In this document: in pieces, positions 13,342 to 60,948 of the stretch
How positions within the stretch are numbered: position 1 is the stretch's first letter
Layout of the letters: each line of letters starts with the position of its first letter
Notes under the pieces: model-generated
The model's database searches: none
What the model was told of the DNA's origin: nothing
Seen by the model: only the letters and a program-made list of their open reading frames with translations
Made by a program: the position numbers and the translations under genes
From: a virus
Taxonomy: Duplodnaviria > Caudoviricetes
Strand: one strand, 5' to 3'
IMG/VR virus record: IMGVR_UViG_3300021387_000573
Coordinates: 1 to 64,000 of that record
DNA: 64,000 nucleotides

Positions 13342-14154
13342 TTAAATAGAACACTTGATAACAGGCGAATACTTTATTTCAATTTCACATCTCAAAGAAG
13401 AATATATTTGATTGTCCCGATCAGAAATCGTATTGCCCAACTTAAAGAAATCATAATTAAAGTCATTTGCTATATCGTGGCCGGAGTTACTGCTAGATAT
13501 AATTAAACTATCACCAGACATGGTTATGACCTCGTTTGCTTCACAGTTGTTAACTACAGTACGAGAACTAACCAATTCGTTTCTTAGCGTAAGTTTTCCT
13601 GCTTCCAGGCACTTTATTTTTATGTATGGGTAACAATAACCAAGCTCGTCCGAAGAGTCTCGAATCACCAGCGGTTCGGATGTGTCTGATACCACCAGAT
13701 TAAACACTTGTTCCTCTGCATACCCATATGGAGCGTCTGTTTCCACCGTCAGTTGTAACCCAACAACATCAGCGCCGATATAAACTTTTTCTACATTGAA
13801 ACTAGCATGAAAAATTCTCGCGTCTCTTGCATCCCAATAGTAGAATATCAAGTTGCAAAATTCTCTTCTATTTAACCAGCGCATAATTGTTCTGATTAAA
13901 TCGTCGGATAAATAAATATCCTGACCGGAGAACAGGTCAGGATTTTTACATATTCCAAAAGTCGTCGTCAGGCATTCGTCATATTTAGATGAATGTAAAC
14001 TCCAATGCCTTCCATAATTTGCGGAAGTCTTTGTGAAATCAATCTTTGATCCAGCGCTCGCTGTAACAAAACCATCACTATAATCAAAATCACAGATGAT
14101 CAGACCGAAATCGCTCAAATACAAACCATCATATTCAAAATCTAATGCGTTCAC
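13342..14154 (-). CDS. Distal tail protein (Dit)
   Basis: DFEYDG..LSDFGL, RWLNR, TDAPYGY; synteny after TMP. Confidence 0.75.
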   Translation of the reverse strand: MNALDFEYDGLYLSDFGLIICDFDYSDGFVTASAGSKIDFTKTSANYGRHWSLHSSKYDECLTTTFGICKNPDLFSGQDIYLSDDLIRTIMRWLNRREFCNLIFYYWDARDARIFHASFNVEKVYIGADVVGLQLTVETDAPYGYAEEQVFNLVVSDTSEPLVIRDSSDELGYCYPYIKIKCLEAGKLTLRNELVSSRTVVNNCEANEVITMSGDSLIISSSNSGHDIANDFNYDFFKLGNTISDRDNQIYSSLRCEIEIKYSPVIKCSI

Positions 14155-14172
14155 CTGACCGCCTCCTTCTTA

Positions 14173-14481
14173 TCACCTCTTTGCAATCATCTTCGCAAAC
14201 TTTTTCTCATACAATCTCATCTCAAACATAGCTCTATCAATTAACGTCTGATACTTATTTCTGATTTCGTTTGCTTCAAGTATTGCAGATCCGTATTCTT
14301 GTTCAATAGCAGACAATCTACAGATTGCCTCGTCGCATTCTTTCGATATATTTTCAATCTGCTTTTTCAACAGATTATTTTCTTTGGACAAAGAAGCGTT
14401 TTCGGATGTCAACTCAGCAATTGTTTCGGTTAGCCGTTCAATCTTTTGCCTTTGAATCCGAGCCATTCTTTCATCAATCAT
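14173..14481 (-). CDS. Coiled-coil hypothetical protein
   Basis: 102-aa ORF with RBS, heptad pattern. Confidence 0.55.
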   Translation of the reverse strand: MIDERMARIQRQKIERLTETIAELTSENASLSKENNLLKKQIENISKECDEAICRLSAIEQEYGSAILEANEIRNKYQTLIDRAMFEMRLYEKKFAKMIAKR

Positions 14482-14506
14482 TTCTCCATCCCCAAATAAA
14501 GATAGG

Positions 14507-14531
14507 GGAGGGCAGATATAATCTGCCCTCC
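14507..14531 (-). terminator. Hairpin after TMP, possible terminator
   Basis: GGAGGGCAGAT/ATCTGCCCTCC inverted repeat; weak U-tract. Confidence 0.5.
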
Positions 14532-14536
14532 TGAAC

Positions 14537-17500
14537 TTAATTTCTAACGTTTACCTTGTACTTACCCATAGAATTTCCGCCGAACATGGCGTCTTCTGCA
14601 ATGGCTTTGATAATTCTTTCTGCGTTCTTGTCTCTTTGCAATTGAGCAATGAAATCGTTATAGTCGCTTACGCGCTCAATTGAAATATTGACTTCGACGT
14701 TATCGATTCCACCAGACAACGCCCGCTGATTGATACCGCCGTTAACACGTCCAAACATCCGGGACATATCTCTTAACGCAGAAAGCGTTGGTGTAGTGCT
14801 AATACCTGCCCAATTAACTCCGCGCACAGAGTTGATAGCAGCCAGCAAGTTTTCAGTATCGGACGAATCCAATACCAGTTCGGGCTTGCTCGGAGTGCCG
14901 TCAACCTTTGCAATACCGGTATAATCAATGAGGCCACCGGTTTTATACTGCTTCACAGACATGCCGCTCGCAGCGACCATCGCCTGCACATTCGCAAGTA
15001 TTGCGCTGATCACCTGCCCGATAGACGTAAGCTTCGTATCAATACTGCCACCGTACTTAGAAACGATGGAGAACGTGCCGCTACTTCCATCCCAGACTGA
15101 ACGCATCTCATCCGTTGGTGTGTACCCAACGCCTGCGCTTATTCTTTCTATGGTTTGGCAAATAGCATCGGAACTTGCGTTTGTGGCACCAATTAAATCA
15201 TCAATTAAGGCGTCTATGTCATCGAGTCGGCTATTAACAGTTTCCTCATAGTCAGAATACAAATCCTCCATCAGTTTCTTTTGTTCGCTAATATAGTGTT
15301 CATATTCCGTTTCCTGCAAAGACTCTTCAGCTTCTTTTAACTGTTTCTGGAGCTTTTGTACTCTGGATCTGCTTTCCTCAGAAGAATCATTCGTATAGGC
15401 GGCGAGCTGCTTCTGAATATCTGCAATAGTAGAAGTCTGCTTAGAAACCTTTTTCTGATAATCGTAGAGGTCTTTTGCGCTATCCAACGATTTGGTATAT
15501 GCATCAATTAAATCGCGCATTGCCTCCACTTGCTTCTCGATACCCTGCTTCGCGAGATCAGCCGCAGCTCTTTTCTCGTTGTTGGCCTCGGTGATCGACT
15601 GTTGCTGTAAGTCCAATAATTGCTCTCTACGAGCTATCAAGTCCTTGTTCCACGGATCTTTTTGAAGCTCTCCTTCAATTCTCTTGAGTTCTTCGGCGTA
15701 CTGATCCGCCTGAGCCATATAAGTATTATAATTCTGAAGGCGGAGACCAACTGACGTAATACCTTCATCGGTGAATGAGCCGTCGTCATTGAACAATTTG
15801 GAATCTTCTAACAAACCAATAAGAAATTCAGACTCTTCGGTCAACCTGGAAATACGGTCAATTGCGTAATCAAAGTTTTCCCAATTGATTTCTCTGATGG
15901 TTTTTGCGAATTCGATGAGTTGTAATTCCGATTCGCTTATTGCTTCTTTTACGCCATCTATCTCGGAGCGCATCTCGTACCAAGATTTAGAACCTTCTTC
16001 GATCTCGCCTGATTTCATCGCCTGTTCATAATACTTTTGCAGCTCTGCCAGTTCAGATTTCAGCATAGAAAGATTCTTTGACTCTATATCTGCCAAAGAG
16101 GAATAGGCTTTCGCAGATCTCAAATAGCCAGAAGCTTCAAGCTTGTCAATTTCGGCATTAAGCATGTTTGCTTCGTGCTCAATTTGCGAAATCTTGTTCT
16201 CGAAATCTTCTTGTACGGCATCGAAATTTCCGCGATACAAATCACCGAGGCTTTCATGAAGATCATCAACCGCACTCGCGCAATCCAAAGATTTCTCATA
16301 CCACTGCTTATATTCGTTTATGAGCTTTGCGGTTTCCTCGTCGTACTCCGAGATGTCAACGGTTCCTTCACGGACGAGTTTCGCCAAATCATCGCTTAAA
16401 CCAACAGACTCAGCTTCTTTCATGTATCTGTCTGCGGCCTTTTGCTGAAGCTCAATTTCTTTGGTTATCTCCGATATCGCATCTTTAGAAGAAGACAGCC
16501 TCTTGCCGAGACTTTTGAATGTACTATCTATCGTTTTCTTGAATTTGCTAATAGTACGCTCAATCCGATCAATAGCAACTTCGATCCAGTCGATTTTTTG
16601 CTTCTTATCAGAAGCAGAAGAACCTCCGCCGGAACCACCACCAGAACCGGGGCCGCCTCCTAACCCAGAACCAATATCAACATCTTGAAGTGTATCAATT
16701 GGCTTAATCTTTGGCTTCTTTTTATCTTGCTTTGTATAGATTTGTGGATAAGGAAGACTCAAATTCCAGCCGCATGCAACACAATTTGCCATAGTCTCCG
16801 GGTTCATCGTGTTACATTTTGGACATCTTATATGCTTTGGATATTGTTTGCGCCCGCCATCTATGGTTACTAAACTTTTGCTCGGACCTGTCCCAATGGC
16901 GGCAGAACCAAACTTTTTAACCTTGTGCCCATTCCGTTTGGCATCTGCTGTGACATCGGCGGGGAGAACAATGTCGCCAGGTTTAAGATCAACTAACGCC
17001 GGTTTGCCATCATTGAATTCTTTGGCTACGCCGTCCTGGATTACGGTTTCTGGACCAAGTTCATTAACATACGCTTTCCCTCTTGGAGCATTTGTCGTGC
17101 CGCCAGCAAAATGTCCGCCTCTACCGGAAAAGCCGCCGCCGGAATGGGAACTACTGCCGGCTGCAGCGGCTCCCTGAAGTTCGCCATTAGTCGTAACATT
17201 TCCTACAATGTCAACTTCATAAGGGCTTCCTGCAAGCAGAGCATCTAATCTCGACTTAAACCCGTCAATAGCGCTCTCGGCCCCGGAAGCATCGGCGGTT
17301 ACTTCTACACCAGAACCCTTATCGTTTAGTTCGTCAATTCCTTTAGTCGCTTCATTGATCCACTGGTATAGATCCTGCATACCCGTAGTATCGATCATGC
17401 CAGCGGATTCAAGGCTCTTCAGAGCCCCTTGTATATCCCAATAATCAAGCCCATCACCGGCAAGTGACTCGATGATCTGCGGGATTTTCTCGGAATTTTT

Positions 17501-20500
17501 CTTTACTTCGCCCGGGATAAGATCAAGCTTATCCACTAGTTCTCCCATGTCCTCGCCGCTCATCATGGCCTGAACGCCAAGAACATCCAATGCGTCGAGC
17601 AAAGCGATAACAGATGCCTCACTCATTTTTGTAGCTTCCGCAAGAGCGGAGACTGACTTATACGCAAACTGGACATTACCAGCCGCGTCAGCCGTAACCT
17701 TAACCGCATCTCCAAGTTCAGAAGCGTGCTCCTGCAAGTAGCTTACAAAATTAGTCGCATAATCATCAGATGCGAAAACGGCTTCCCAAATACCAGAAGA
17801 AAGCAGTTCGCCAACTTTATCAAGCCCGTAATTGTTCTGCGCCAAGAAATCGCGGTTAAAGAATAAGTCTGCTGCGGCTCGCATCTCATAGGTATCGGTT
17901 TTGCCAGCCTTATAGGATTCAACGGCAGACTGATAAGCTTTCGCCATTTCTGCCGCAGCGTCACCCTTTTCACCGCCTTCAAGCGCCTTCTTATAGTCTT
18001 CGAGAGCCTTTGATGTTACAGTTAATTCATCGCGGAAAGAAACGAGATCATTTATCTGTGCCGACGTTGATTGTTCAGTAGCATTCGCCATGTCGCGTGA
18101 CATGCGCTCAAAATAGATCGCCGCATCCTCTGCGGAATAACCCATTTCAGTAAGACACTGAGCCAATCTGCGGCTTTGATCTTCTGTAAGCTTACCGTCT
18201 TTTAGAAAAGTGTTGACAACATCATCTGCGTCGTCGCCGATTTGTTTGAGACCCTTCTTAAAATTATCGAACGTCTTTTCAGAATCTTTAATACCAAGAG
18301 TCGCCGCAATAGTGCCCAGCAAAGAATCTACTGTTGCTATAGATTCTTTATCTGTCAGATCACCACGCAAACCGACAAGAAAATCCTGAAAAACCGAGAG
18401 CGTTTCCCGTTGCTTGTTGAGGTCGTCTTCTGCTTTAACAAGTTCTTTGTGAAGCCCGTCAAGCGTCTCTTCGTCAGCGTTGTCGAGTTTTGCATCTGTG
18501 ATAGCTTTATTTACAGCGTCAAGTTTTTCACTGGCTGTAGTGTAATCGCTTATTGCGTTGAGGAGTCCACCGAGGCCGGAGCTATTGCGTTCGAGCTCGC
18601 CAATGCCGTCTAAACGCTCTTGCCATGCGTTATCTGTAAAAGACTTGAGCGCTTTTGCGGCATCACTGTTTGCTTTTTCTGTTACCCTGTCCTGCTTATA
18701 TTTTGCAATCTCTTTTAGCAGTTCGAGTTGCCTCTCATACTGATTGTTTTGGCTCTCAAGATTGTCAAGCTCCTCCTGCTCAGTGCTGCTGAGTTCGCCG
18801 GAATCTTTGAGTGCGTTCAGTTCGTCGATGCGCTTCTGAGTTTCATCGACCTTTGACTGCATTTCATCAAACTCTTGCTTTGCTGCTTCGGCATCTTTTT
18901 GAAGCATTTCGAGAGTCGGGTGAGCTTCTCTATAGGCTTTGATGCCAATGGCGACAGCGCCTATGGCGGCACCGATACCGATGATCCATGGAAGGGCAAC
19001 ACCGATAGAGGCTCCAACAGCATCAAAAGAAAGAGCTAATTTGATTTGGTCTTCGGTCAGCCCCTTCGCTGCCAATGAGGCAGCAAGATATTTGGGACTT
19101 AGCAACATTGCTTCATCACCAAGCGAACGCAGGGCAGTCACGGCTACTCCGAGATCTTTAAGTCGCATTTATTAATTGACTGAAGACTGCATTCATAGTA
19201 TAATTTCAACGAGGTGATAAAAATGGGAAAACCAAATTTTTCCATTGAGCAAGTTGCGATTCATTGCCCAAATTGCGGAAATGAAGAAGGGAAAAGGTTC
19301 TTCACATCCGGGGTTGGCGGGAGTTTTGAAGAAACAACCTGCACAAAATGTGGAAGCATTATATCTCAGAATAATAACATTACAAATCCAGCATTCGACG
19401 CAGTTATGAATCCGAAATCAACTGTCACTTGCCCCTTCTGCCAATCTACCAACTGCAAGAAAATCAGTGGTGCTTCTAAGATCGGGAAGGTAGCGCTGTT
19501 TGGTGTGTTTGCTGCTGGGTCTGTTTCTAAAACTTGGCATTGTAATAACTGCGGCAGCAATTTCGGATAATAGGAGTTGTCAATAAATGACATCGGTGCT
19601 ATAATTTCAGTGCATATCGCTCCCCTCAAGTCAGAGAATTAGTAGGATGATGAACGGCGTCTGAACATTCTCGGACGAGAAGGGAGGTGGGATATGGTTG
19701 AATCGGTGTTGTTAAGCGCCTTAGTAGACCTCCTCGTTGGTATCATTTTGATCGCCATCGAGCGTCTCACTGAAAATTAAATAGCGGTGTGCCAGGGACT
19801 GTGTGCAGCAGTCCCTGTTTTTTATTTTGAAAAAGCATTGACATACTACAATAATTGTAGTATTATTGTAGTGAAAGGAGGGGCGTATGAACGATAAGGC
19901 ACTAAATATCAAAATACCAGCAGAGTTATATAATCAGCTTAAAGAAGAAGCGGCGAAAAAGAATATTTCATTGGCTTCGCTTGTCAGGCTGATATGCTCT
20001 GAGTATTTTGAGAACAAATGAAAAAGCTCCGCAACGTGTGAATAGCTTGGCGGCATCCACGTCACAGAGCTCCCGACCGAAGGAGATCGGTCTGTAAATC
20101 TATCCTACTACAAATCGGTCTCCTTGTCAAACATCAATGATTTGTAAGGAGATTTTATGGAAGACGCAAAAGAATATACGTTTACCAGAAATGCAGAAGG
20201 GACCATCATTATCAATGAGAAATGGCCGCCGGTAGACATCGCGCCTGCGACTTCTCTGAGCCGTGCCTCCTTGTTTGCTCTGAATTGGGCAACCGGAGGC
20301 TGCGCTGGGCAACTCGACACCGAAGACATTTTCTCGTTTCTTGATCCTGTTATTCATGGATCTTATCATGGGGTGCCGGATGGATTTGTAAATTCACCAG
20401 ACCTCAATACGGCGCTTATGGTATTTGAACATAAGCCCTCAGAAGTGGAGCTGCGCACCAAGGCGGATCAGGTCTTCACGTTCATTGATACATATAGACA

Positions 20501-23500
20501 CAGCATTCTCACAAGCAAGATGATTCTCAGCGCCACCGAAAAGAGGGAGGCGGTAGCATGAATCAGTCCATTCAGACTTTTGCCAACGAAGAGTTCGGAA
20601 GCATCCGCACCATCATGATCGATAACGAGCCGTGGTTCATTGGAAAAGAGATAGCAACCATTCTTGGGTATGCCAACACAAAGGATGCTCTTGTCAGGCT
20701 TGTTGATGCGCATGATAAAACAGTAGCTCTAAGGTCGCAATTCCCGACCTTAGAAAATATCCCGAATCGCGGGTTGACAATCATCAACGAGTCCGGCCTT
20801 TACAGCCTCATCCTCTCCAGCAAACTCCCGTCTGCCCGAAAGTTCCAGCGTTGGGTGACTTCCGAAGTCCTTCCGACAATCCGTAAGACAGGAGCATACA
20901 TGACGCCGGAAACGCTCAAAGAATCTCTGCGTGATCCCGAATACCTGCGCGGTGTTCTCTCGCTTCTGGACGAGCAGTACGAGAAGAACAAGAAACTGTC
21001 TACCGATCTCGCTGTCGCCAACGAGAGAAACAAAAGTCTCACCACGGCGAATAAGGCGCTGACAGGAGAGATCTGCGAATGGGACTGGCGAGCCTGCATC
21101 AACAGCCTGGTCAGAGCATATGGCAGTTATCGTCTCGGCGGCAACTTCGTCATGGCCTGGAATACTTATTACAAGCATTTCAACAATAAACTCGGCACCA
21201 ATATCCGGAATCGGAAGCCGTGCGGAAAGAGGATTCTGGATAGGGTAGAGCAGAACGAGTGGAAAGACGCTGTGAGAATCGCTGCGGGATTGTGTGAACA
21301 AGCCGATATCGACATCGGGAATGTCTTGAATAACATAAATCTTAGCATCTATATCGATGCCACAGTATAATGATAGTATAAGAGGGGTCGGACTTCCGGC
21401 CTCTTTTTTTTTATTAAATTGTATTGCACATTCGGACATGCATTAACAGCGAATGAAATATGGTTTTCATCCGCTGTGAGAGATTCTGCCCTGCGAACAT
21501 CTCCGCCATAAGATCCTTTATCCCGGCATCGGTTGCCCGATTGCTTCCACCGGATTATATGGATCGACAGGGGAGTCCCTGCTGACGGGTTAGCTGCGCG
21601 TTGCCCATTGTCGTGTCCGGTAGGCGTTATTGTTTAGACTTGGACATCCCACTCCCGCGTGCCACGGTTTGACTTATTTGCCTCGTCGGCTGCCATATAG
21701 GCGTAGTGAGCGTTAGGGGTTCGCGCAATTTACTCTCTTTTTATTTTAGAACCTTCATCCTATGGACTTGTTCACGCAACCATTACTGCGCGTTCTTGCC
21801 CATAGTAGGCCAGCTTAAAGATCTCGGAATTAAGCGTGCCCTCAAGGGGCCGACCGAAGTTCTGTATTAGTGCGGCGATCCCTGCAATACCACCAGCGGC
21901 AAGAAGCGTGCCGCCAGGGCCAAGGAAGCCCGTGATTTTTTCTAAGACATCTGCAAAAGCGGTTAAACCGTCAATTGCGTTACCGATGCCTTCGCGTGGG
22001 AAGAGGTTTTGCCAGATCCCGACGCCAGTTTCTTTCAGCGCGTTGAGCTTGTATTCGAGAGAGTCCATGATGATGGACATCTCTTTATCTGCGTTGCCTG
22101 CGCTGGTTTCCATCTTTGCCATTGCATCTTCAGCGGCGCTGAAGTTGGACAAGATGGCCATACCAATCTGGGCGCGGTTCTTACCAAATAGTTTCTCAAG
22201 CAGGCCAGCCTGTTCCTTGTCGGTAAGTTCGTCCCAGATTTCAGAAATGCGTTTCAGGATTTCGTAGGTGGATTTATAAGTGGTTGGGTTCTCCATTATG
22301 GAGACCTTGCCATGAGTGAGTTCGGAGATGTCGTTCTTGACGTTGCCAAGGGTCTCGTCAAATTCGCCTGTCTCCTCATCCAACATTCTGTTGCTTTTGT
22401 GACCATGATCACATGGCGGGCAGTCGTTTCTGGCTACCTCTCGCGTTTCATATTTACTGGATTATAGCGCGAGTTCGGACTGTATATTACTCTCGCCTTT
22501 AGGCAGGGAGAACGAACTTCAGCACATCTGTTACCAAATGCACCCCGCAGTCTCTGAGGATTCTACTGTTTTGCATATAAAAAATACTCCTGTATAACAG
22601 GAGCTAAAATCTCATCTATTTTATCAAAATCATAATACGGGATTCGTATTAGTTTAATATTGTTTGACTTACAATAATCGGTCTTAATAGCGTCTTTTAT
22701 CTTATTCTTTTCAAACTGTTGCTCTGCCCACTCTTTCCCTTTGCCAGCAAAATCTACCGGGAAGAAGTGCTGTTGCCCATCGAATTCAATAATCGTATTG
22801 GATAATGGAATAAAGAAATCAAACTTGAGCGGTTGCTGATAGACGCATCCATCAAATGTCTTCTGCGGTTTATACTGTATTTTATTCTTTTTCAAAACCA
22901 CAGCTATGCGATCCTCGCCCTTGCTAAACACGCACGACGGGCATCCGGAGCCTTGGTATAAGCTTGCTGGAGTTGTAAACCAAGTGTCTCCACACTTTGC
23001 ACACCTACACTCAATCTTTGATTCCCAGCCAGAGTATTCCCCAATTATCTGAGTAAATGGGGAACGATCTTTTATTTGTAGAGCGAAATCCTCGGTAGTT
23101 TTATTTTTACCAGCACAGTATGAGCACCCATAGGCGCAGTTCTTAAAATGGTCCCAAGCCATAGATTGCTCACCTTTTCCTCTGTGTTCAGGACAGATGA
23201 ATTTTACGATAGAGCCAGTCCTATCATGGCGCAAATATCTTCCAACATATTCAAGACCGAGACTGTTACATCGATCAATTACGGTGTCTTCATCAACCAT
23301 TTTCACCGATTTCTCCATCGTGCAATAATGGCAATGCCTACCAGCATTGACAACATTGTTAAGCGTTCTTTGCTGAACACCGTACTCTGCATGCAAATCG
23401 CAAATGAAATCTAATTTATCATGCATACCAGAATATGTTTCGCTCACCAGATGAAAATGTGGAAAATTGATATTTAAGTACGTTTTGATGTTTTCAACAG

Positions 23501-24859
23501 CATATGGATTCCGTTCAATCCAGCTCGGCTTTCTACCAGATAAATACCTGCTTTTGCAAATATTATATCTATACCCATCTGCATCATGTGCCGGTATTTT
23601 CGTAGACGATATGTATTGTTCAATCGTATAACCATCTTTTTCGAGCAGAGCAAGGAATTCATCTTTTGTCAATCCTTGCACCTCATCATTATCATTTATG
23701 CAAAACAGTAATCTTTCCTAAGTCTCTGGATTCCAGTATCCATTTGACTTATATAGTTCGTTATCTATGCAATTTGTTGAGCGCAGCATAGTCTATGTAT
23801 TTCTACATAGTTGGGCATGGATTTCCTACCCCTAATGCGCATCGAAATCGTTCTTAATCCGTTGCCAACTCTGCTGGCATCCTGCGTTATTTCTGTGCCA
23901 GCCGTAATTAACGCAAGTGTTTGTTCAAACGAGTTGTTTGCCGCAGACATGGACGCCGAAGAAACTTGAAGTGCGTCGGCGAGATCTTTGTTCGACAGAG
24001 CAAAACTATTACCTAAGATGTTAATCTTAGACATAACTCCGTCAAGAACTTCATCGGTTGTAATGCCGAACGCCTTCATCGTCGAGACGAGAGATTCTTG
24101 TGCCGTCTCAGTTGACATACCCGGCGAGATCATTGCAAACTGCGAGCTCAGTCTCGCCATTAATGTTGCATCATGCTTCGAACCGTATCCAAGCCTAGAC
24201 CACGCGGCGGCTTGAGATATGATCTCTTTAGTGCTTACACCGAGCGCCTTAGCCTCTTTATTCGCATCACGATAAAAACTAACCAGATCCCCGTCCGACA
24301 TCGTGGTCGTCTTGCGAAGGTCAACCAAAGCAGTATCAAGTTCAATAACTGTATTAACACCGCTCTCTACTGCCCTTACAATTTTGCTGAGCACCTGATA
24401 TGCACTACCGAGCCCAACAGCCTGCAAAACCGTGTTTTTCAGAGATGCGGCAAAAGAGTTTACCGTCAGCCCTGCCGCTTTTGCCTCTGACTGAATCTTC
24501 GCAAACTCAAGCGCAAGTTGTCGATACCTATCTGTTGGCACATCACCAGCCTTGAGCTCTTTTTGCATCTGTTTCAGAACCGTACCAAACCTGTCTGCCG
24601 CTTTCGAGTTGTTATTCATCCAAGTCTGGATCTTATTAGAAAGCGTGACAGAGCGGATTTGTGTTAGTTCATTTTTATATTCACTTGTGCTTTTTGCGGC
24701 TTCCCTTGCGCCTTTCGCAATACCTTCAAATGGATTGCCTTTTGAAGATCTGTTACTATACGCAGACTCTATCTGTTTGATTATTCGTGCTACATCAGCA
24801 TCAACAGTAGAGTCATCAAGCCTTACTTTGATTAGTGCTTCCCAATTACCACCAGGCAT
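14537..24859 (-). CDS. Tape measure protein, three exons join(23828..24859, 21853..22383, 14537..19165), 2063 aa if spliced
   Basis: TMP core (ELDTALVDLRK, VGNGLRTISMRIRG|LDEETGEF, KSTYEIL) and long coiled coils; both junctions in frame (IRG|LDE, NFG|RLK). Confidence 0.85.
19176..19204 (+). promoter_or_regulatory. SigA-type promoter
   Basis: TTGACT-17-TATAAT. Confidence 0.8.
19223..19570 (+). CDS. Double zinc-ribbon protein with hydrophobic segment (moron-like)
   Basis: CPNC..CTKC and CPFC..CNNC; GAGGTG RBS; own promoter. Confidence 0.75.
   Translation: MGKPNFSIEQVAIHCPNCGNEEGKRFFTSGVGGSFEETTCTKCGSIISQNNNITNPAFDAVMNPKSTVTCPFCQSTNCKKISGASKIGKVALFGVFAAGSVSKTWHCNNCGSNFG
19577..19605 (+). promoter_or_regulatory. 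SigA-type promoter
   Basis: TTGTCA-17-TATAAT. Confidence 0.7.
19694..19780 (+). CDS. 28-aa hydrophobic peptide, type I toxin-like
   Basis: MVESVLLSALVDLLVGIILIAIERLTEN; GGAGGT RBS, promoter and terminator. Confidence 0.65.
   Translation: MVESVLLSALVDLLVGIILIAIERLTEN
19793..19823 (+). terminator. Rho-independent terminator
   Basis: CAGGGACTG..CAGTCCCTG followed by T-run. Confidence 0.75.
19838..19872 (+). promoter_or_regulatory. Promoter with palindromic operator
   Basis: TTGACA-17-TATTAT overlapping TACTACAAT-A-ATTGTAGTA. Confidence 0.75.
19887..20021 (+). CDS. Ribbon-helix-helix (Arc/CopG-like) regulator, 44 aa
   Basis: MNDKALNIKIPAELYNQLKEEAAKKNISLASLVRLICSEY; AAGGAGG RBS. Confidence 0.8.
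   Translation: MNDKALNIKIPAELYNQLKEEAAKKNISLASLVRLICSEYFENK
20157..20561 (+). CDS. Hypothetical protein
   Basis: AAGGAG RBS; stop overlaps start of BRO gene. Confidence 0.65.
   Translation: MEDAKEYTFTRNAEGTIIINEKWPPVDIAPATSLSRASLFALNWATGGCAGQLDTEDIFSFLDPVIHGSYHGVPDGFVNSPDLNTALMVFEHKPSEVELRTKADQVFTFIDTYRHSILTSKMILSATEKREAVA
20558..21370 (+). CDS. BRO-N domain antirepressor-like protein
   Basis: FGSIRT..EPWFIGKEIA..LGY; INESGLYSLILSSKLPSARKFQRWVTSEVLPTIRKTGAY. Confidence 0.9.
   Translation: MNQSIQTFANEEFGSIRTIMIDNEPWFIGKEIATILGYANTKDALVRLVDAHDKTVALRSQFPTLENIPNRGLTIINESGLYSLILSSKLPSARKFQRWVTSEVLPTIRKTGAYMTPETLKESLRDPEYLRGVLSLLDEQYEKNKKLSTDLAVANERNKSLTTANKALTGEICEWDWRACINSLVRAYGSYRLGGNFVMAWNTYYKHFNNKLGTNIRNRKPCGKRILDRVEQNEWKDAVRIAAGLCEQADIDIGNVLNNINLSIYIDATV
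21381..21412 (+). terminator. Rho-independent terminator of the cargo operon
   Basis: AGAGG..GTCGGA/TCCGGCCTCT followed by long T-run. Confidence 0.75.
22384..23827 (-). mobile_element. Group I intron 1 of TMP with endonuclease ORF
   Basis: P1 GGGU/GCCC with U.G; P3 AACGAACU/AGUUCGUU; P7 GACUG/CAGUC; terminal G; P10 AUCCA/UGGAU; ORF looped out by 13-bp inverted repeat TACTGTTTTGCAT. Confidence 0.9.
22563..23681 (-). CDS. Intron-encoded homing endonuclease (Zn-ribbon repeats plus Vsr/DUF559-like nuclease)
   Basis: SKGE..FDFFIP..IIEFDGQQH..D..K..LIRIPY. Confidence 0.8.
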   Translation of the reverse strand: MQGLTKDEFLALLEKDGYTIEQYISSTKIPAHDADGYRYNICKSRYLSGRKPSWIERNPYAVENIKTYLNINFPHFHLVSETYSGMHDKLDFICDLHAEYGVQQRTLNNVVNAGRHCHYCTMEKSVKMVDEDTVIDRCNSLGLEYVGRYLRHDRTGSIVKFICPEHRGKGEQSMAWDHFKNCAYGCSYCAGKNKTTEDFALQIKDRSPFTQIIGEYSGWESKIECRCAKCGDTWFTTPASLYQGSGCPSCVFSKGEDRIAVVLKKNKIQYKPQKTFDGCVYQQPLKFDFFIPLSNTIIEFDGQQHFFPVDFAGKGKEWAEQQFEKNKIKDAIKTDYCKSNNIKLIRIPYYDFDKIDEILAPVIQEYFLYAKQ

Positions 24860-24932
24860 TTATCTCCCTCCTCTCAAAGATTCGGTCAATAAAAAATTCG
24901 CCATCCAAGGCGAACAAATAAAACTATTCATT

Positions 24933-25973
24933 TTACAGATCCTCCAATGAGGTCTGCTTAACAGACTTGATGCCGTCCGCTCCAAAATACTTTTCTAACT
25001 GGGAATCATTTGAGCGGTCATCATAAAGTCTAAGCATTTCTGCGCTAGACCAGCCAGAGATCATTTGGACAACAGCCTCTGGGAGATTAGCTTCGAGCAT
25101 AGATGTCGTCCAGAAATGCCGAACGCTGTGGAAATAAAATGGCTTGTTGAGCATTCGCGAGAAAGTTTCTGCAAGCGAGTTCATCATTGGAACACCTATA
25201 TGCTCATTTGAATCCCTTGAATCAGGGAATAACCACTCGCTTTCAATGCCAAGTCTTTCTCTTTCCTGCATCCACATATCGAAGTATGGCTTAAATGGTT
25301 TCGCAAGCACATAGACATCGAGAAGTTTGCCTCTCTGTCCACGCCCTTTTGTCACCATCTTTTCTGGCGTCTTATATAACGCTCCTCCACAAATCAAGTT
25401 TTTATCATCAAAGTAAGAAACCTTGAATCGAGTTAGTTCTACTTTGCGTTTGCCGCTATACATCGCCAAGGCCAATACGCACGCCTTCATATATTGTTTT
25501 TCCTCGACAAGATGATCAAGCAACGATTTCAGTTCTTCGTCTTTGAAGACTGTTTTAATGCGGACTTCTTCATTAACCGGAGACTCAATCTTATTCCAAA
25601 TTGCTCTATAATCTGGGAACTCGTCATCAAGCATATTCTCGATATAGTTTTCGAGTGACCGCGCCGTAGCCTTCACAGTACGCATTCTTCGAGGAGACCA
25701 TCCCCATACATTCAAAGCGTAGTTCTGAAACTTCGTGATCTCGCGTTTCGTGAAATCCACAAACGCCTTATTCTTGTTGAATTCTAAGCTCCAGCACCAG
25801 ATGATATGTAAATTGCTTGTATATTGCCGGATCGTATTCTTCGCCTTATCCGTTGCTTCCAGATATTCAAGGAAGTCTTTCTCAAGTTCCAAGTTATCCG
25901 GGTTTACCTGCTTCATTTTCTCTTCGGACGTTATCTCGTTATAGACAGTAGAACGCCCTTCAACTTTTCCCAA
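24933..25973 (-). CDS. Tyrosine recombinase
   Basis: SGKRKVEL, HSVRH, SGW, terminal Tyr (RLYD). Confidence 0.85.
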   Translation of the reverse strand: MGKVEGRSTVYNEITSEEKMKQVNPDNLELEKDFLEYLEATDKAKNTIRQYTSNLHIIWCWSLEFNKNKAFVDFTKREITKFQNYALNVWGWSPRRMRTVKATARSLENYIENMLDDEFPDYRAIWNKIESPVNEEVRIKTVFKDEELKSLLDHLVEEKQYMKACVLALAMYSGKRKVELTRFKVSYFDDKNLICGGALYKTPEKMVTKGRGQRGKLLDVYVLAKPFKPYFDMWMQERERLGIESEWLFPDSRDSNEHIGVPMMNSLAETFSRMLNKPFYFHSVRHFWTTSMLEANLPEAVVQMISGWSSAEMLRLYDDRSNDSQLEKYFGADGIKSVKQTSLEDL

Positions 25974-25988
25974 TCACAATCACTTCCT

Positions 25989-26387
25989 TTACTTAATTGC
26001 CGCTTCGATTACAGCAGAAGCATCTCTAATGATATTGTTCATAGCGCGATCAAAATCCAGTGGCCCACCGACAACGCCTGCGCCATGGTTCTCTGCCCAA
26101 CCAAGCACAGTTCCCATTCCGGGCTTGCTGCCAGTCGAGTACCCTCCGCTTGTATCCAAATATGCTTTGAATTCAACGCTATTTGATCCTGCTTTTACAC
26201 CATCAGTTTTTGGAGTATTAGCAAGTTGTCCAGTACGAACATACTTCTTTGGCTCGCCAGACCCATAAAACCTGCCTGTTTCCTCGTACAAATCTCCAAG
26301 AGCCAGTTGCTCCGCACTTTTCATTGCGTTAGTCAGGCTCCTCATAAGCATTTGTCTGAGCTGCGCAGAGCTTGTTGCAGTAGGCAT
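25989..26387 (-). CDS. Tail completion / neck protein (HK97 gp10-like)
   Basis: Y..P..YVRTGQL motif; synteny. Confidence 0.5.
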   Translation of the reverse strand: MPTATSSAQLRQMLMRSLTNAMKSAEQLALGDLYEETGRFYGSGEPKKYVRTGQLANTPKTDGVKAGSNSVEFKAYLDTSGGYSTGSKPGMGTVLGWAENHGAGVVGGPLDFDRAMNNIIRDASAVIEAAIK

Positions 26388-26393
26388 ATTACA

Positions 26394-26879
26394 TCACTCT
26401 TTCTTCAAAGCTTGTTCAACAAAACTGATAACCTTATCGCCGTCAGCGCCAACGATCTCATTAAAACGATTCGATTCACCGAAGATCTTCGCCATATTAT
26501 CGGGCGTGAAATACTGTTCAATAAACTTGCTGATAATGTTTACGCCACGGATAAGAGAGCTTCTGCGGTCTGACACAATCTGCATGGCATCAGAATATGC
26601 GTTGCTAAAATTCAAGCAGGGGAGAGCGTATCCATCAAGCGCATCACGGTAAGCGCAAATAAAATCGTCGTTACCAAATACAGTGTCGAGCGCAGACAGG
26701 TCATCTTCAGTAGTCTTGCGCTCTGCGTCTTTTGCATAAAAGTTCTCATAAAAAATCTGCATTGCATGAAGTCTGCCGGCATGAGGAATGTAACTACCAT
26801 CCTCAGCAATAAAACCAGCAGCAATATCTTCGACCAGATTGATATATTCAACCACGCCAACTTTAGTATCAATTCTCAT
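26394..26879 (-). CDS. Hypothetical protein (possible tail chaperone)
   Basis: ORF with GGAGG RBS in tail module. Confidence 0.5.
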   Translation of the reverse strand: MRIDTKVGVVEYINLVEDIAAGFIAEDGSYIPHAGRLHAMQIFYENFYAKDAERKTTEDDLSALDTVFGNDDFICAYRDALDGYALPCLNFSNAYSDAMQIVSDRRSSLIRGVNIISKFIEQYFTPDNMAKIFGESNRFNEIVGADGDKVISFVEQALKKE

Positions 26880-26926
26880 TTCTCTACCTTCCTCCAAACT
26901 CAATAAAATCAGTTTTCTATCTGTTA

Positions 26927-27076
26927 TTATTTTCTACTTGTTGAACCTGTGATTATTGCCAAAAACGCAGCTCCAATTACAACAAGGAACACTGGCAACA
27001 CAAGCCATGCTTCTGGGCCGTATAGAAACGCTCTCCAACCAAGAGCAGATATCTCACTTATAAGATCGTGCCACAT
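26927..27076 (-). CDS. 49-aa membrane protein
   Basis: MWHDLISEISALGWRAFLYGPEAWLVLPVFLVVIGAAFLAIITGSTSRK; AGGAGAGGT RBS. Confidence 0.6.
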   Translation of the reverse strand: MWHDLISEISALGWRAFLYGPEAWLVLPVFLVVIGAAFLAIITGSTSRK

Positions 27077-27091
27077 ATGCACCTCTCCTTG

Positions 27092-27622
27092 TTACGCCGC
27101 CGGCCTTTCGCCTAAAACACTCAGCAATGCATCCATATCATATCTATAATTTGACTTTAGTTTCCTTTGCGGAATCACAAAGTATTGGATATCATAGTCA
27201 TCCAGATCTTTAAGATTAAAGCTCTTCTTACCAACACAATCCATTAGTCTGTTGAACGCTTCAATCTCAATAAAGATCGTCAACTCCAGCTCGCGGAATT
27301 CGATAATAAATCCGCAAGTCATGCCATCATATTTATTCCAAACATTAAGCCCTTTAATCTGATGATAATGAATTTCTCCCTTATCATCTTCTGTGCGCTC
27401 AAAAGAAATAGACTTTCCGGACACTGTCTTTAGTTCAAAAGCATAAGGTTTGTGCCGTTTGGAATCCCAGACAAAATAATCAAATGGATTCTTCAAACTA
27501 AACCTAAGATTATCGGATCGACCGAATGATTGAGCAGAATCCGAAAGCCTATGTACGAGTGCATAGTCCGGAGCAGACTTCGCCCACTGGATCTCAAAAT
27601 TTTTTCCGGTGGATATCGCCAT
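27092..27622 (-). CDS. recU: Holliday junction resolvase, RecU-like
   Basis: GKNFE, PFDY, FELKT, IHYHQI motifs. Confidence 0.75.
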   Translation of the reverse strand: MAISTGKNFEIQWAKSAPDYALVHRLSDSAQSFGRSDNLRFSLKNPFDYFVWDSKRHKPYAFELKTVSGKSISFERTEDDKGEIHYHQIKGLNVWNKYDGMTCGFIIEFRELELTIFIEIEAFNRLMDCVGKKSFNLKDLDDYDIQYFVIPQRKLKSNYRYDMDALLSVLGERPAA

Positions 27623-27624
27623 AA

Positions 27625-27858
27625 TCAGTCCTTCTTCGGCGCACTCTCGCACCACTTTCGGTAAACATAGGCCGTCTCGCCTTTAAGGAACCAAGCGGTA
27701 ATCTTACCCGGTTTCAGTTCGTTCTCAAATACGAACTTTGGCTGACAGCCATGGCTGGTATAAAAAATAACCTGACGTAGATTATCAATCGGTATCAGGT
27801 TCTCTCGGCCATAGCACTCAATAGCCTCTTCCAAACTCTCAAAACTAATCGTTCTCAT
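27625..27858 (-). CDS. Small hypothetical protein (DUF5659-like)
   Basis: Resembles 34005..34193 and 40588..40833. Confidence 0.5.
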   Translation of the reverse strand: MRTISFESLEEAIECYGRENLIPIDNLRQVIFYTSHGCQPKFVFENELKPGKITAWFLKGETAYVYRKWCESAPKKD

Positions 27859-27941
27859 TCTTTCTCCAAATCGCAAAATTTTAGGGAGATAACAGGTTCT
27901 CAATAGTCTGTCTCTCCCTAAAACAAACTACGATACCCATG

Positions 27942-28181
27942 TCATTCTTCTTTCGACTCAGACTGTTCGTCCGATACAACAGGTGTTTTCTTCTTGCGAG
28001 TTTTCGTCTTTTTCTCAACCGGCTCGCTATAATTATCGGGAACCACAGTGTAGTGCCCGTCATCCTTGACCTTGACGACAGTGGCTTTTCTTCCAATTGC
28101 TGGGATCTGAACCTGAATGTCGTCATACTGAATTACAGTAACTGCTTCGTTATTGAGCAGAACCTTGCATTCTTTCAGCAT
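27942..28181 (-). CDS. Hypothetical protein
   Basis: AAGGAG RBS; basic C-terminus. Confidence 0.6.
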   Translation of the reverse strand: MLKECKVLLNNEAVTVIQYDDIQVQIPAIGRKATVVKVKDDGHYTVVPDNYSEPVEKKTKTRKKKTPVVSDEQSESKEE

Positions 28182-29469
28182 TTAAATTCTCCTTGGATAT
28201 GAAAAAGCCGCCAACAACTTTGTCCGGCGACTCAGATTTTGCTTTATTGAATTCCTCGCGAGTTACGAACTGGAACTTGTAGCCTTTATATCTACTGCCA
28301 CGATTTATCGATTTCCTAACCGCACGTTGGCTACATTTTCCAACTACGCCTTCTAACCAGTCAGTTGCATCGTTAGCGGATCTGAAATACATTGATACAT
28401 CTTCACAAAATAGCGGTTTTGCACCATGCTCTATGGCATTACTTAAATCTAATTTTTCTCTGTCTTCCAGAATGGTGTATGTGCACCAACCAAATTTAGC
28501 ACCAGTCTGAATATATCCAAGAGCAGTTTTATATGAAATCCGAAAAATTTTCGCAATCTCTTTAATCGTCATGAAGCCATGCGAATTTTTGTAATCACAA
28601 ATCATTTTGGCAAAGTTTGATGTTGCGAATGAATCACATAAAACCCAATTAATATCGCTAACCATCTTATCAAGCACATCAAGAAGCCCAGATGATACAA
28701 TATTATTTTTGATATAATCACAATCAGACTCGCTAGAATCTATAGCAAAGTAATAATCAATGCCATTTTCTTTCGCGATATCTCTCTTAAATATATCATT
28801 TTGCTTCTCTTCATCCAGAGTTCTGTACATGCCACCAACATGAACTGGCCTGGAATAGTGTTGTTTTCCATGCATCTCTACAATTATTTTTTTACCATGA
28901 TGCTCGATATACTCGTCATAGAACCTTCCACAAGACCAGTCAAATTTCATTTCTGGATGGAAATCAACACCGCATTGCTCCAAAACAGAATATATGAATT
29001 TATTCGGATAACTTTGACCGTCAGAACATAAACAACTTAAACCATGATTGCTCATCACCTGATGAATCTGTTTGTGATGTATTCGACCGCAATCAGGGCA
29101 TTTCATATCAACATATTTCTTGCTATACTTTGTATTTGTATATACGTCATTTTGATCAACGAAATAAACCATCATCCATGGTGCCGTCGTCGAAATGTCA
29201 TTCACACCTTTGACTATTTTGCTGGGAGAAACACAACAAGCGTTACATCCGCAAGGACGTTTCGATATAAGCGCATCTTCTCTCACCCAATCTTCGTTGC
29301 CACAATCAAGGCATCTATACAAATACCACTTTTCATTTTGTGTATATGACTTGCCGCGTTTTAATTTTTCTTTTGACCTATATTCTCTTTGAATAATGAT
29401 CAAATTTCTATCGTGTGACGAAATTTGGTCTCCAATGTCACACTTAAATTCTCCGAACATCTTCCCCAT
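28150..29469 (-). CDS. Free-standing homing endonuclease-like protein
   Basis: Zn ribbons; SYPNK..YD..IIVEMHGKQHY; C-terminal HTH/NUMOD-like region. Confidence 0.75.
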   Translation of the reverse strand: MGKMFGEFKCDIGDQISSHDRNLIIIQREYRSKEKLKRGKSYTQNEKWYLYRCLDCGNEDWVREDALISKRPCGCNACCVSPSKIVKGVNDISTTAPWMMVYFVDQNDVYTNTKYSKKYVDMKCPDCGRIHHKQIHQVMSNHGLSCLCSDGQSYPNKFIYSVLEQCGVDFHPEMKFDWSCGRFYDEYIEHHGKKIIVEMHGKQHYSRPVHVGGMYRTLDEEKQNDIFKRDIAKENGIDYYFAIDSSESDCDYIKNNIVSSGLLDVLDKMVSDINWVLCDSFATSNFAKMICDYKNSHGFMTIKEIAKIFRISYKTALGYIQTGAKFGWCTYTILEDREKLDLSNAIEHGAKPLFCEDVSMYFRSANDATDWLEGVVGKCSQRAVRKSINRGSRYKGYKFQFVTREEFNKAKSESPDKVVGGFFISKENLNAERMQGSAQ

Positions 29470-29498
29470 ATCTCGCCACCTCTTTTCTAATTAAAACA

Positions 29499-29522
29499 AG
29501 GGGCGGAGATTTCTCCGCCCCC
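29499..29522 (-). terminator. Terminator after tail tube gene
   Basis: GGGGCGGAGA/TCTCCGCCCC hairpin followed by TTGTTTT. Confidence 0.7.
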
Positions 29523-29533
29523 CCAAATAGTTT

Positions 29534-30633
29534 TTATTCAGCGTCTTCCTCGACCATATCGAGAATATTGCCGTCCTTGTCTTCCATAAGATCAACCATA
29601 TGTTCCACCGAGGTCGCTACTCTCGATGAGCGCACAAAGCGCATCTCTATGTTTCCATAAAGTGCAGACTATATCTTCATCTTTTAAGATGCCCACCACA
29701 GTCCTCTGCTTAGAGGCACTTAGTCGTTGAACCTTCTCCTGTTCGGAGCTTGGCTGCTGATTATCCATTAAAAAGCGTTTAGGATTTAACCATGCGCTAT
29801 CTACATATTTTCTTTCTACTTTCGTAACCATCACGCTTGAGCATGTTTCATCTCTACGTTGTGGTATATGTAGCTTTAGGATTTTCCAGCAATTCAATGG
29901 GTTATTTATCATACACGTCTCCGTATACGGACGCTGCTTATCTTATCAACGTCGCAGTAACCGTCGCAGGATCACCTTCGGAGCTGAAGGACAGTTCCCA
30001 AGTGCGCTGGATGGAAGCCTTATAGGCAGTGATCTTAAAGGGAGCGAACGCGCCCTCCTCGTCCTTGTCCAGAGTGCTCATGGTGATGAAGTAATCCTTC
30101 GGCATCTTCTTGTTGTTGAAGGAAATCTTCTTCACGCCGCTCTTGACCAGCAGGTAGCCAATCTCATACTCGCTGCCAACCGCAATGTCAGAAGCCGTAG
30201 TTGCGGTAAACACGTTACCAGCGAATGTACCGGCAATCGCGGCATCCTCGTCGCCGTACTGACCAGCGGGATACGCGAACACAAAACCAGTCTGAATGGT
30301 GTTGCCGTCGCCAGGAACCAGGGTGATCTTACCAGCCTCGGTAGCCTTAATCTTCTCGTGCATAGCGATGGTGGCAGAATTGTCGATGGTGCCATCGGAA
30401 AACAGAGAGAAGAACTTAAAGGTGTAGACCTGCGCCTCGACACTCAGCGTACCGGTGATGGGGTTGGGGAAGGCAATGCGACGAGCGCCCTTAGCCATAG
30501 CGTAGACGGAATCGCCTTCGAGGCCAACAGTGGTGGTATTGGCAGTCTCAAAGAACAGATATGGAGCCATAGTCTTCAGGATGCGAATATCGAGATCACA
30601 TACCTGGCGGTTGGCTTTATTCAGTTCAGGCAT
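29534..30633 (-). CDS. Major tail tube protein, two exons join(29949..30633, 29534..29595), 248 aa
   Basis: Splicing gives ...SSEGDPATVTAT-F-DLMEDKDGNILDMVEEDAE; high-expression codon bias. Confidence 0.85.
29596..29948 (-). mobile_element. ORF-less group I intron (353 nt) in tail tube gene
   Basis: P AAUUGCUGGAAA, Q AAUCAGCAGC, R UCAACGACUA, S AAGAUAUAGUCU; P1 ACGU/GCGU; terminal G. Confidence 0.93.
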
Positions 30634-30669
30634 ATTTTTATCCTCCTAAATAAAGAATGAAGACCAACC

Positions 30670-31479
30670 TTATGGCTGGCCTTTTTTAGTGTCATATTCG
30701 TTTTTGTACCAAGCATCGGGTTTGAACGTTTTCTTTTCATCGCCCCATACAGACACCCTCGTCTTATCAATCTCATAGAAAGCATCGTTTCTCAGCCTAT
30801 CAAATGAATCCATTACCTGATAGATCGTAAGTTTTCCGATGTTTGTATAATTGATAGATGGATGCCTTGTGGCAACGGCAGAAATAATATTCGGCAGAGT
30901 CAGATTGGGATCGTGCTTCCCATTCTTTTTCTGATCTCTTTTAGCCCGTTGCATTTTTTCATATAGTTTTCGTGCCTTCTCATTCTTGAATTTAATCTGC
31001 GAAGGATCAATCTCTTCTTCATCAGCTTCCATGCCGCAAACCTGTTTCAAGATATTGAGAACCTGTGGAAACAAAGGCTCGGTGATAGCGCCACGGATAT
31101 CATCTTTTGATAAATCTCCGTGCGGATCAACGCCTTTGTTCAATATAATAAAAAAGCCATGCTCGTACAGAACAGGCTCTTCGATAAAAAATCGAAACAA
31201 CTCCATGTATATTTCACGCAAAGACTCATCCGCTTCTATAGCAGAAAACAGCGTCATAGAATCCCTTTCCTCGTCGGATAAAGATTCCCACAGCTTCTTG
31301 CCAGCCTCTACGTTAATCTTTGTGAAATACAACTCCGGAGTCATCGAAAGAAAACTCTCATAGAACGCGAGCGTGTCAAATCCGATATCCCAAATCATAT
31401 CAATCGTCGGCTTCCTGATAGTGCAAATAGATAATCGGATCGGGAGCGGACTCGTCATAGTGCCGTAATCAAGTCTCAT
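30670..31479 (-). CDS. Conserved tail-module protein
   Basis: ORF between tail terminator and tube. Confidence 0.55.
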   Translation of the reverse strand: MRLDYGTMTSPLPIRLSICTIRKPTIDMIWDIGFDTLAFYESFLSMTPELYFTKINVEAGKKLWESLSDEERDSMTLFSAIEADESLREIYMELFRFFIEEPVLYEHGFFIILNKGVDPHGDLSKDDIRGAITEPLFPQVLNILKQVCGMEADEEEIDPSQIKFKNEKARKLYEKMQRAKRDQKKNGKHDPNLTLPNIISAVATRHPSINYTNIGKLTIYQVMDSFDRLRNDAFYEIDKTRVSVWGDEKKTFKPDAWYKNEYDTKKGQP

Positions 31480-31967
31480 CTAAAATTGGGCACCTCGAAA
31501 GTCATCTGCACGCCATACATCTGCCTAGAGTTATACGGATATACAGACACTAGGTTCATCGGCCCAATGCCGAATTCCTTATTGACTTCTTCGTCGTTGA
31601 TCAGAACATCCTCGATCATTTGTGAGAGAATGTCGGAGCGATTGCCGTGATAACCTTCCTTTGAGTAATCATCCAGAATGTCCCTATGGCAGATCGCATA
31701 CAACGTAACTTGGCAAGTCTTTGTATTCGTTCGCAGACTCGGCATAATAACATCGTAATAAATGAACGATTCCGTCGCCTCGATAGTGTCGTCGATGAAC
31801 AAGTGAGACTTAACATGATCGCGAAACTCTTTCATAATTTGAGAAGTTTTCTTCCCGGTAAGATCTCCGAGCAGGAGCTCTTTGATGTCGGCACTCTTAT
31901 ACAAGGCGGCATGGATGTTCTCTTTGAATATCCCGCGTTCTGCGGTGTCTTTATTAACTTTAGCCAT
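31476..31967 (-). CDS. Putative tail terminator
   Basis: Size and synteny; GNRSDILS motif. Confidence 0.5.
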   Translation of the reverse strand: MAKVNKDTAERGIFKENIHAALYKSADIKELLLGDLTGKKTSQIMKEFRDHVKSHLFIDDTIEATESFIYYDVIMPSLRTNTKTCQVTLYAICHRDILDDYSKEGYHGNRSDILSQMIEDVLINDEEVNKEFGIGPMNLVSVYPYNSRQMYGVQMTFEVPNFR

Positions 31968-48170: not shown

Positions 48171-48247
48171 TGGTTGCGGAGGTTGGACTTGAACCAACGA
48201 CCTTCAGCTTATGAGGCTGACGAGCTTCCAACTGCTACTACTCCGCA
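48171..48247 (-). tRNA. tRNA-Met (CAT), initiator-like body, encoded CCA
   Basis: TGCGGAG/CTCCGCA acceptor stem, TCAGC-CTCATAA-GCTGA, TTCAAGT T-loop. Confidence 0.9.
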
Positions 48248-48486
48248 GAATATAAAAAAGACCCGACGTGGTACGCATCGTTGAGAGGCGTGTCGGGTTC
48301 TATGTTATAATTAGAGCACGTCCGGCACAGCACAAGCCATGCCGGTAGCTCCAGAGAAGAGAAAGATAGAGAAATGAGAACAGGTATATTTTATACTATA
48401 TACCATAATACTAAAAATTTTTGAAGGACTTGAAACCCGCATAAACACTTGTTTTTTTTGATGTTTTTAACTTTTAATTGCTGCGT

Positions 48487-59575: not shown

Positions 59576-59669
59576 TTGATCGTCAGAGCGATCTAAAACA
59601 GTCCATTAAGCTCTGAGCGTGGGGCTTATGCCCCGGTTGGAAAAATACATAATATGGGGAGGAAAAGTC

Positions 59670-60865: not shown

Positions 60866-60948
60866 TTTCATAATGCAGAGCACACCGGAAAATCCGGTGT
60901 AATGCAGCCGAAGACCGTTGCAAGCCGGTTGTACTGGAAAATATGAAT
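60866..60948 (+). ncRNA. Twister ribozyme (circularly permuted, P5-type)
   Basis: P2' UGCA-GA-GCA, P1 CACCGG/CCGGUG, U^AA, P2 UGCA-GC, P4 ACCG/CGGU with loop UUGCAAGC. Confidence 0.8.

Follow-up and report, generated by a model that had tools for sequence, protein, structure and literature searches.

The stretch of DNA analyzed here, hereafter the window, comprises positions 1 to 64,000 (its full length of 64,000 nucleotides, nt) of the IMG/VR virus record IMGVR_UViG_3300021387_000573, assigned to the Caudoviricetes, and our subject is the second intron of its tail tape-measure gene. This gene lies on the minus strand and is split into three pieces, as seen from PHROG matches to successive parts of one profile and from an alignment to the uninterrupted 2217-residue gene of another locus (L002). 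Exon 1 ends near 23828, exon 2 covers 22389-21853, and exon 3 (14537..19165) is open for 1543 codons; an exon 3 frame of more than 1500 codons is found in all lineages. Intron 2 (19166..21852, minus strand) is 2687 nt long, its limits being based on the geometry of helices P1 and P10, on the reading frame, and on alignment to the intron-less genes of L017 and L006. The host is a gut phage, and on sequence grounds the intron in its tape-measure gene is a group I intron; introns of this group in tape-measure and tail-tube genes are already known from prophages of the Bacillus cereus group (PMC2504315).

The last three nt of exon 2 (GGU, 21853..21855) can pair with an internal guide sequence (IGS) triplet, which would place the 5' splice site after U21853, in a U.G wobble, while the intron would end with a terminal G (omega G) at 19166, and a G precedes exon 3 in 9/9 family members. 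Splicing at these positions would join the peptide as NFG|RLKDLG, a predicted product that aligns without gaps to the uninterrupted genes of L017 (NFGKLKELG) and L006. Because of this gapless junction, and because a deletion bounded by the repeat described below aligns worse, we place the intron at 21852-19166, and we infer that it is spliced. Another splice site (AGAACU|), with a GGUUCU stretch as its guide, was considered and rejected, as the G is not conserved and both the frame and the protein alignment disagree with it.

The two ends of this intron are linked by a perfect inverted repeat of 15 nt, in which minus-strand positions 21828-21814 are the exact reverse complement (100%) of positions 19162-19148, 2651 nt apart. 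As the original prediction had described, the intron arm abuts the 3' strand of P1 (GCUGGCC, 21814-21808), whose first G is the last G of the repeat, and the exon arm begins at +4 of exon 3, three nt past the terminal G. The pairing, in fact, reaches further than was claimed, as 20 positions of the P1 loop (g1-g20, 21811..21830, minus strand), here called the guide, face the first 20 positions of exon 3 (+1 to +20, 19146..19165, minus strand, encoding RLKDLGV), with 17 Watson-Crick pairs, two G.U pairs, and a single mismatch. Read from the splice site, these are C-G at +1, G.U at +2, the A.C mismatch at +3, perfect pairing from +4 to +18, G.U at +19, and U-A at +20, for a duplex energy of -26 to -28.5 kcal/mol in the window. 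The 15-mer pair is the longest perfect inverted repeat within 14000-25500, and the guide/exon-3 helix is included in the minimum free energy fold of the whole 2761-nt precursor. When the rest of the precursor was shuffled 300 times, the longest complement to the 39-nt P1 loop measured 6-11 nt; perfect 15-mers are expected by chance at 6e-5 anywhere in the precursor and at 2e-7 within the first 10 nt of exon 3. The expectation of 6e-5, together with shuffles that reach 11 nt at most, shows that the repeat is not due to chance. As for the other two introns of the window, to which P10 helices of about 5-7 base pairs (bp) had been attributed, intron 1 has indeed 5 bp (-6.2 kcal/mol) and intron 3 has 7 bp (-6.4 kcal/mol).

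The guide lies directly 5' of the IGS triplet GCC (21810-21808) and ends beside the G in the U.G pair of the 5' splice site, and its pairing with the exon starts from +1. These are the attributes by which P10 is defined, namely nt 5' of the IGS that pair with the first nt of the 3' exon and covary with them. The location, the start at +1, the predicted stacking on P1, and the covariation with exon 3 (see below) all agree with the earlier proposal of an extended P10, and we consider it very probable that the repeat is the core of such a helix, contiguous with P1 and about three times the usual length. Near the 3' splice site, we also noted a local stem that can join the intron's final 10-30 nt to exon positions +18 to +42 and would present the splice site and the P10 target in its loop (19134-19195 in the window). 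This stem has 14 bp in L040 (6343-6396) and L122, 11 in L112, and 9 in the window, and is not significant in L120.

Covariation of the guide with the start of exon 3 had been put forward as a check on the original prediction, and the two do co-vary in the eight other members of the family, all of them from other metagenomic phages: L040, L112, and L147 (viral contigs), L120 and L122 (metagenomes), and L145, L150, and L083, with their exon-3 loci L152, L151, and L153. Together with the window these make up the nine members compared here, a set that leaves out the intron of L003/L037, which comes from the same sample and a similar gene position and whose P1 and P10 were not settled by eye, as well as the type found in L141, L143, L144, and L148. 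In a five-sequence alignment, 81 of 94 guide/exon-3 cells are paired, compared to 28-54% when the strands are slid, and eight positions are compensatory. With nine sequences, exon positions +12 to +17 are paired in 9/9 and compensatory changes are seen at 14 exon positions, with G.U pairs tolerated. The closest relative, L120, carries the same ribozyme with a guide that differs at three places, and its exon 3 has changed to match: the G-C pair at +10 became A-U, and +2 and +3 are now fully paired, with a new mismatch at +7. Duplex energies are -28.5 kcal/mol in the window, -23.2 in L120, -21.7 in L083, -20.4 in L147, -16.9 in L112, -14.7 in L150, -13.6 in L040, -12.7 in L122, and -12.6 in L145. 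In the design common to the family, a proximal P10 of 3-7 bp is followed by a bulge or internal loop and then by a distal helix of 7-9 bp, which is conserved over exon +10 to +18 and lies at most 20 nt from the splice site in every case. The peptide encoded by the exon strand is also conserved in intron-less genes (KLKELG in L017), so that it is the guide that follows the exon.

Among the introns left out of this comparison, that of L003 gave no Rfam group I match either. In L141, L143, L144, and L148, the guide is folded back on a 9-nt copy resembling exon 3 inside the P1 loop; no tape-measure exon 3 was found within 4.5 kilobases (kb) after the core, and a search of the record for the exon 3 protein was also negative. 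The contig names of at least L141 and L144 resemble isolate-genome identifiers. As for other sources, no DNA relative of the region or of the core was found among GenBank phages, a J2/3 motif scan of 185,579 species genomes returned chance matches only, and a 15-nt motif scan of viral contigs returned mostly chance matches.

The ribozyme core, from P1 to P8, is contained within the first 420 nt of intron 2, with P2-P8 first recognized by eye. The catalytic core proper (21434..21805, minus strand) was tested as 63 pairs on five sequences and consists of P2 (21805-21798/21767-21760), P3 (21737-21732/21483-21478), P4 (21728-21722/21600-21594), P5 (21719-21716/21606-21603), P6 (21589-21583/21508-21502), P7 (21491-21487/21438-21434), and P8 (21477-21465/21458-21446), all on the minus strand. 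Upstream of it, the IGS triplet GCC (21808..21810) would form the exon side of P1 with the GGU of exon 2, and a small GCCC/GGGC hairpin in the P1 loop at the 5' end of the intron (21838..21850) is present in the RNAalifold consensus, with compensatory changes in the L040 subgroup. Across the five sequences, 96.5% of the P1-P8 cells, those of the P3/P7 pseudoknot included, are paired, compared to 36-43% with partners slid; 22 of the 63 pairs are changed on both sides, and P3, P4, P6, P7, and P8 each show compensatory change. All five homologues (5/5) keep the U.G at the 5' splice site, and the adjoining pair (-2) switches from G-C to A-U on both sides. By sequence comparison, intron 2 combines the hallmarks of a group I intron: a P1 with a U.G wobble and an internal guide, a core with a P3/P7 pseudoknot, and a terminal G.

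Two further observations concern the core. Exon 2 positions -10 to -5 (21862-21857) can pair with a conserved stretch directly after P2 (21754-21749), a pairing that could tether the 5' exon a second time, its P1 pairing being only 3 bp, or could mask the splice site in an alternative fold. Furthermore, an RNA contig of the source sample matches the core (21424-21773) perfectly and then continues beyond 21424 with 77 nt unlike the window; it may derive from a related intron that carries different cargo.

Between the core and the 3' splice site, the intron carries about 2.2 kb of cargo in antisense orientation to the tape-measure gene (19176..21412, plus strand), which can be divided into three modules. 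Its open reading frames (ORFs), all on the plus strand, are a zinc-ribbon ORF (19214-19570), a second ORF (20157-20561), and a Bro-N/anti-repressor ORF (20558-21370). Near-consensus promoter-like sites on the same strand are located at 19176-19204, 19577-19605, and 19838-19866, the first of them only 10 nt inside the intron's 3' end, and an intrinsic terminator for this putative operon is predicted at 21380..21407 (plus strand), where the intron RNA would form a hairpin about 25 nt after P7'. A hairpin of different sequence stands at the same position in L120, L040, L145, and L147. No P9 domain is seen beside the 3' splice site of intron 2, nor did we find the consistent 2-bp pairing looked for as P9.0, and it is conceivable that the terminator hairpin, placed where P9 would be, acts as P9. 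The only families matched by the cargo proteins are Bro-N/anti-repressor and zinc ribbon, with no transposase among them. The gene beside the 3' splice site encodes a small protein with two zinc ribbons around a hydrophobic stretch and, at its end, a shared C-terminal block. All family members seen carry this gene, as does another intron family at the same codon (window 19176-19570, plus strand; L120 2374-2703; L040 5981-6277; L122 5476-5772; L036 5863-6327). A 28-nt, 79% complementary inverted repeat (19949-19976/21448-21475) also links the P8 hairpin with a small ribbon-helix-helix-like cargo gene.

In L120, the intron measures 868 nt and its cargo is reduced to the zinc-ribbon gene, and the guide is nonetheless kept. 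That the guide persists while the cargo differs, with three modules in the window and one in L120, fits the idea that the choice of the 3' site is independent of cargo. The same comparison contradicts the suggestion that the long guide compensates for the distance imposed by the cargo, as the 868-nt intron has a guide as long (17/18 paired) as the 2687-nt one.

Based on these data, we propose that 20 nt in the P1 loop, immediately 5' of the guide triplet, would pair with the first 20 nt of exon 3, which would bring the 3' splice site back to the core and align both exons end to end on one continuous guide. The terminal G (19166) would then enter the G site in P7 for exon ligation, the second step of splicing. 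The long guide would form beside the exon side of P1, its only competitor being the 4-bp intron side, as is normal for P10, and the 2.2 kb of independently promoted antisense genes would stand where other group I introns have their P9 domain. In this scheme, the extra length of the guide would matter for capture of the 3' site. More tentatively, it is possible that a bipartite exon-binding guide has replaced the docking role of P9 and left the 3' part of the intron as a free slot for antisense genes, and that the 15-18 bp of the window would suffice even with exon 3 on a separate RNA; we consider this extension rather doubtful.

Several findings weigh against an extended P10 with such a role. 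Neither the joint 21853|19165 nor that of intron 1 was seen in two metatranscriptome runs of the source sample (14000-31500), which yielded short, low-depth contigs only, too thin to reveal either joint. RF00028, the Rfam group I model, gave no match at E up to 10, either with 3.6 kb or with the 471-nt core alone, and within the window this model matches only intron 3 (29645-29934, 86.6 bits); P7 of intron 2 reads, in fact, GGGCA/UGUCC versus the usual GACUA/UAGUC. The exon side of P1, at only 3 bp, is short for a group I intron. In both the window and L120, the reading frame of exon 2 continues across the guide and meets a stop in the P2 loop after 81 nt of intron, so ribosomes could unwind the guide. 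A very stable P10 might also slow exon release, as engineered ribozymes perform best at about 6 bp (PMC6155759). A continuous helix of 15-18 bp, with the loop closed, is limited to the window and L120, and because the other members have a bulge or an internal loop, the extreme length of the guide is not itself conserved. Part of the covariation, moreover, is one-sided tracking by the guide, since the exon strand is constrained by its peptide. Lastly, guide strength is a lineage trait that is not scaled to distance, given the long guide of L120, the guide duplexes of -12.6 to -20.4 kcal/mol in family members of 826-986 nt, and the case of L036, where an intron of a different family, at the same codon and with the same kind of cargo, has a P10 of only 7 bp.

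Other explanations for the repeat were also considered. The helix might be a structural clamp that loops out the cargo so that the ribozyme can fold, comparable to stems closing ORF loops, with the terminal G and the first few P10 pairs setting the 3' site and the distal part not needed for that choice. Intron 1 of the same gene does have a 14-nt perfect stem bracketing its endonuclease ORF, IStrons have an inverted-repeat stem around their insertion sequence (IS) part (PMC4227781), and in most family members a loop stands between the proximal helix and the distal one. In intron 2, however, it is not the cargo alone that is bracketed, one strand being exon; the helix is contiguous with P1 in the window and L120, and the distal helix stays within 20 nt of the splice site in all cases. 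A purely structural role thus appears unlikely to us. If the arms were instead the terminal inverted repeats of an element (21828..19148) that moves or is excised as DNA, one would expect inverted repeats at the ends of an insert, as is typical of transposons, and a deletion of 21828-19148 does in fact stay in frame. Such an element was nonetheless rejected, and we deem it scarcely credible: the cargo lacks a transposase, the exon arm belongs to the native coding sequence and recurs in the uninterrupted L017 gene, and the excision product aligns worse to uninterrupted genes than the spliced one. G.U pairs and bulges in the relatives fit RNA rather than protein-bound DNA ends, and no DNA contig without this stretch was seen in the DNA runs compared, whereas intron 3 and the intron 1 ORF did show such variants there.

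A further scenario, anticipated by the original prediction, has exon 3 on a separate transcript joined in trans, with the long guide as a docking sequence. The duplex has the strength to keep two RNAs together, transcription of the pre-mRNA has to proceed against three near-consensus antisense promoters, and promoter-like sites on the strand of the gene exist at 20130-20102 and 19385-19358. These promoter and terminator signals on the gene strand are, however, consensus matches only, in an AT-rich region full of such matches; the cargo terminator lacks a U tract in the direction of the gene, and in all relatives seen, exon 3 follows immediately downstream, on the same strand and with no split arrangement. 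We regard trans-splicing as quite improbable. We are as reluctant to believe that the duplex is regulatory, by delaying exon release or tape-measure translation or by offering a double-stranded RNA site to RNase III, instead of aiding capture of the 3' site. A continuous duplex of 15-18 bp does approach the substrates of RNase III, and about -26 kcal/mol greatly exceeds the requirement of engineered ribozymes (PMC6155759). Nevertheless, most helices in the family are shorter and interrupted, so that a long perfect duplex is not the conserved feature, and cleavage is not indicated by any of the data. The extended P10 is therefore the reading that we retain.

Additional observations relate to the other introns and RNAs of the window. 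In intron 1, the 14-nt perfect inverted repeat (22564-22577/23697-23710) brackets the endonuclease ORF, and a DNA contig from the source sample lacks 22564-23711 and has 7 other letters in their place, which indicates that an allele of this intron without the endonuclease gene coexists. Similarly, DNA contigs of two studies skip exactly the 353 nt of the tail-tube gene intron (29595-29947), so intron-less tail-tube alleles circulate; the P5 extension of this intron differs by about 105-111 nt from strain to strain. A second, unrelated-looking group I type, also with antisense cargo, occupies the exact same tape-measure codon (KNIG|IFK) in L036 (5495/6404), L024, and L039. Elsewhere in the window, pistol and twister-P5 ribozymes lie 1.2 kb apart (59578-59641 and 60874-60929), and an abiF RNA adjoins a tRNA (48178-48297).

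In textbooks, P10 is regarded as short, weak, and often dispensable. If our interpretation is correct, base pairing alone is enough for group I ribozymes to specify a 3' splice site as remote as 0.8-2.7 kb, which would explain how swappable antisense cargo is tolerated inside an essential phage gene. These introns would also offer natural models for extended guides, which at present are designed by trial and error for use in trans-splicing and in RNA circularization. The literature searched contained no account of a natural P10 that is long or bipartite, nor of antisense cargo in group I introns.

Among known systems, the introns of Bacillus cereus-group prophages (PMC2504315) reside in the same kind of host gene, and there, too, different introns have adapted to one site through P1 and P10. 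Those introns, however, are of the IA1 and IA2 types, come with or without homing endonuclease genes, and have an ordinary P10, with neither antisense cargo nor a long guide described. IStrons (PMC4227781) share with intron 2 a 5' ribozyme, a kilobase-sized passenger after the core, and a 3' splice site far from it, but they are of IA2 type, with P7.1/P7.2 and P9.0-P9.2, and encode transposases. Intron 2, in contrast, has only 4 nt between P7 and P3', which leaves no room for P7.1/P7.2; its passengers are antisense and have putative promoters of their own, and its bridging helix makes use of the exon. Identity with IStrons was consequently rejected, as neither an IS200/IS605 nor an IS607 transposase is present and P7.1/P7.2 are missing. 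The T4 nrdD (sunY) intron, work on which is attributed to Michel et al. in 1992 (Genes Dev), is said to carry a kilobase-sized passenger, an ORF, between the core and a remote 3' splice junction that core pairings bring back; docking there reportedly depends on P9.0, a short P10, and P9 substructures at the 3' terminus, and the ORF is said to encode a homing endonuclease on the sense strand. The arrangement of that intron thus resembles intron 2 in the location of the ORF and differs from it in the sense orientation of this ORF and in its P9-based docking.

Ordinary P10 helices involve nt 2-8 of the 3' exon, are weak, and have an optimum of about 6 bp (PMC6155759), and have been described as 'a short sequence' (PMC3984707). 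The helix proposed here uses the same strands in the same place, beside the G of the U.G pair, likewise cannot form together with P1's intron side at g1-g4, and starts at +1; what differs is its extent, of 20 positions at about -26 kcal/mol, and the family-wide second, distal helix beyond a loop. The bipartite guide of the family has its layout in common with the guides engineered for trans-splicing Tetrahymena and Azoarcus ribozymes (PMC6155759), which also combine a short helix at the splice site, an internal loop, and a longer capture duplex. Those guides bind a 5' substrate in trans, whereas the guide of intron 2 is natural, would act in cis as far as seen, and would bind the 3' exon.

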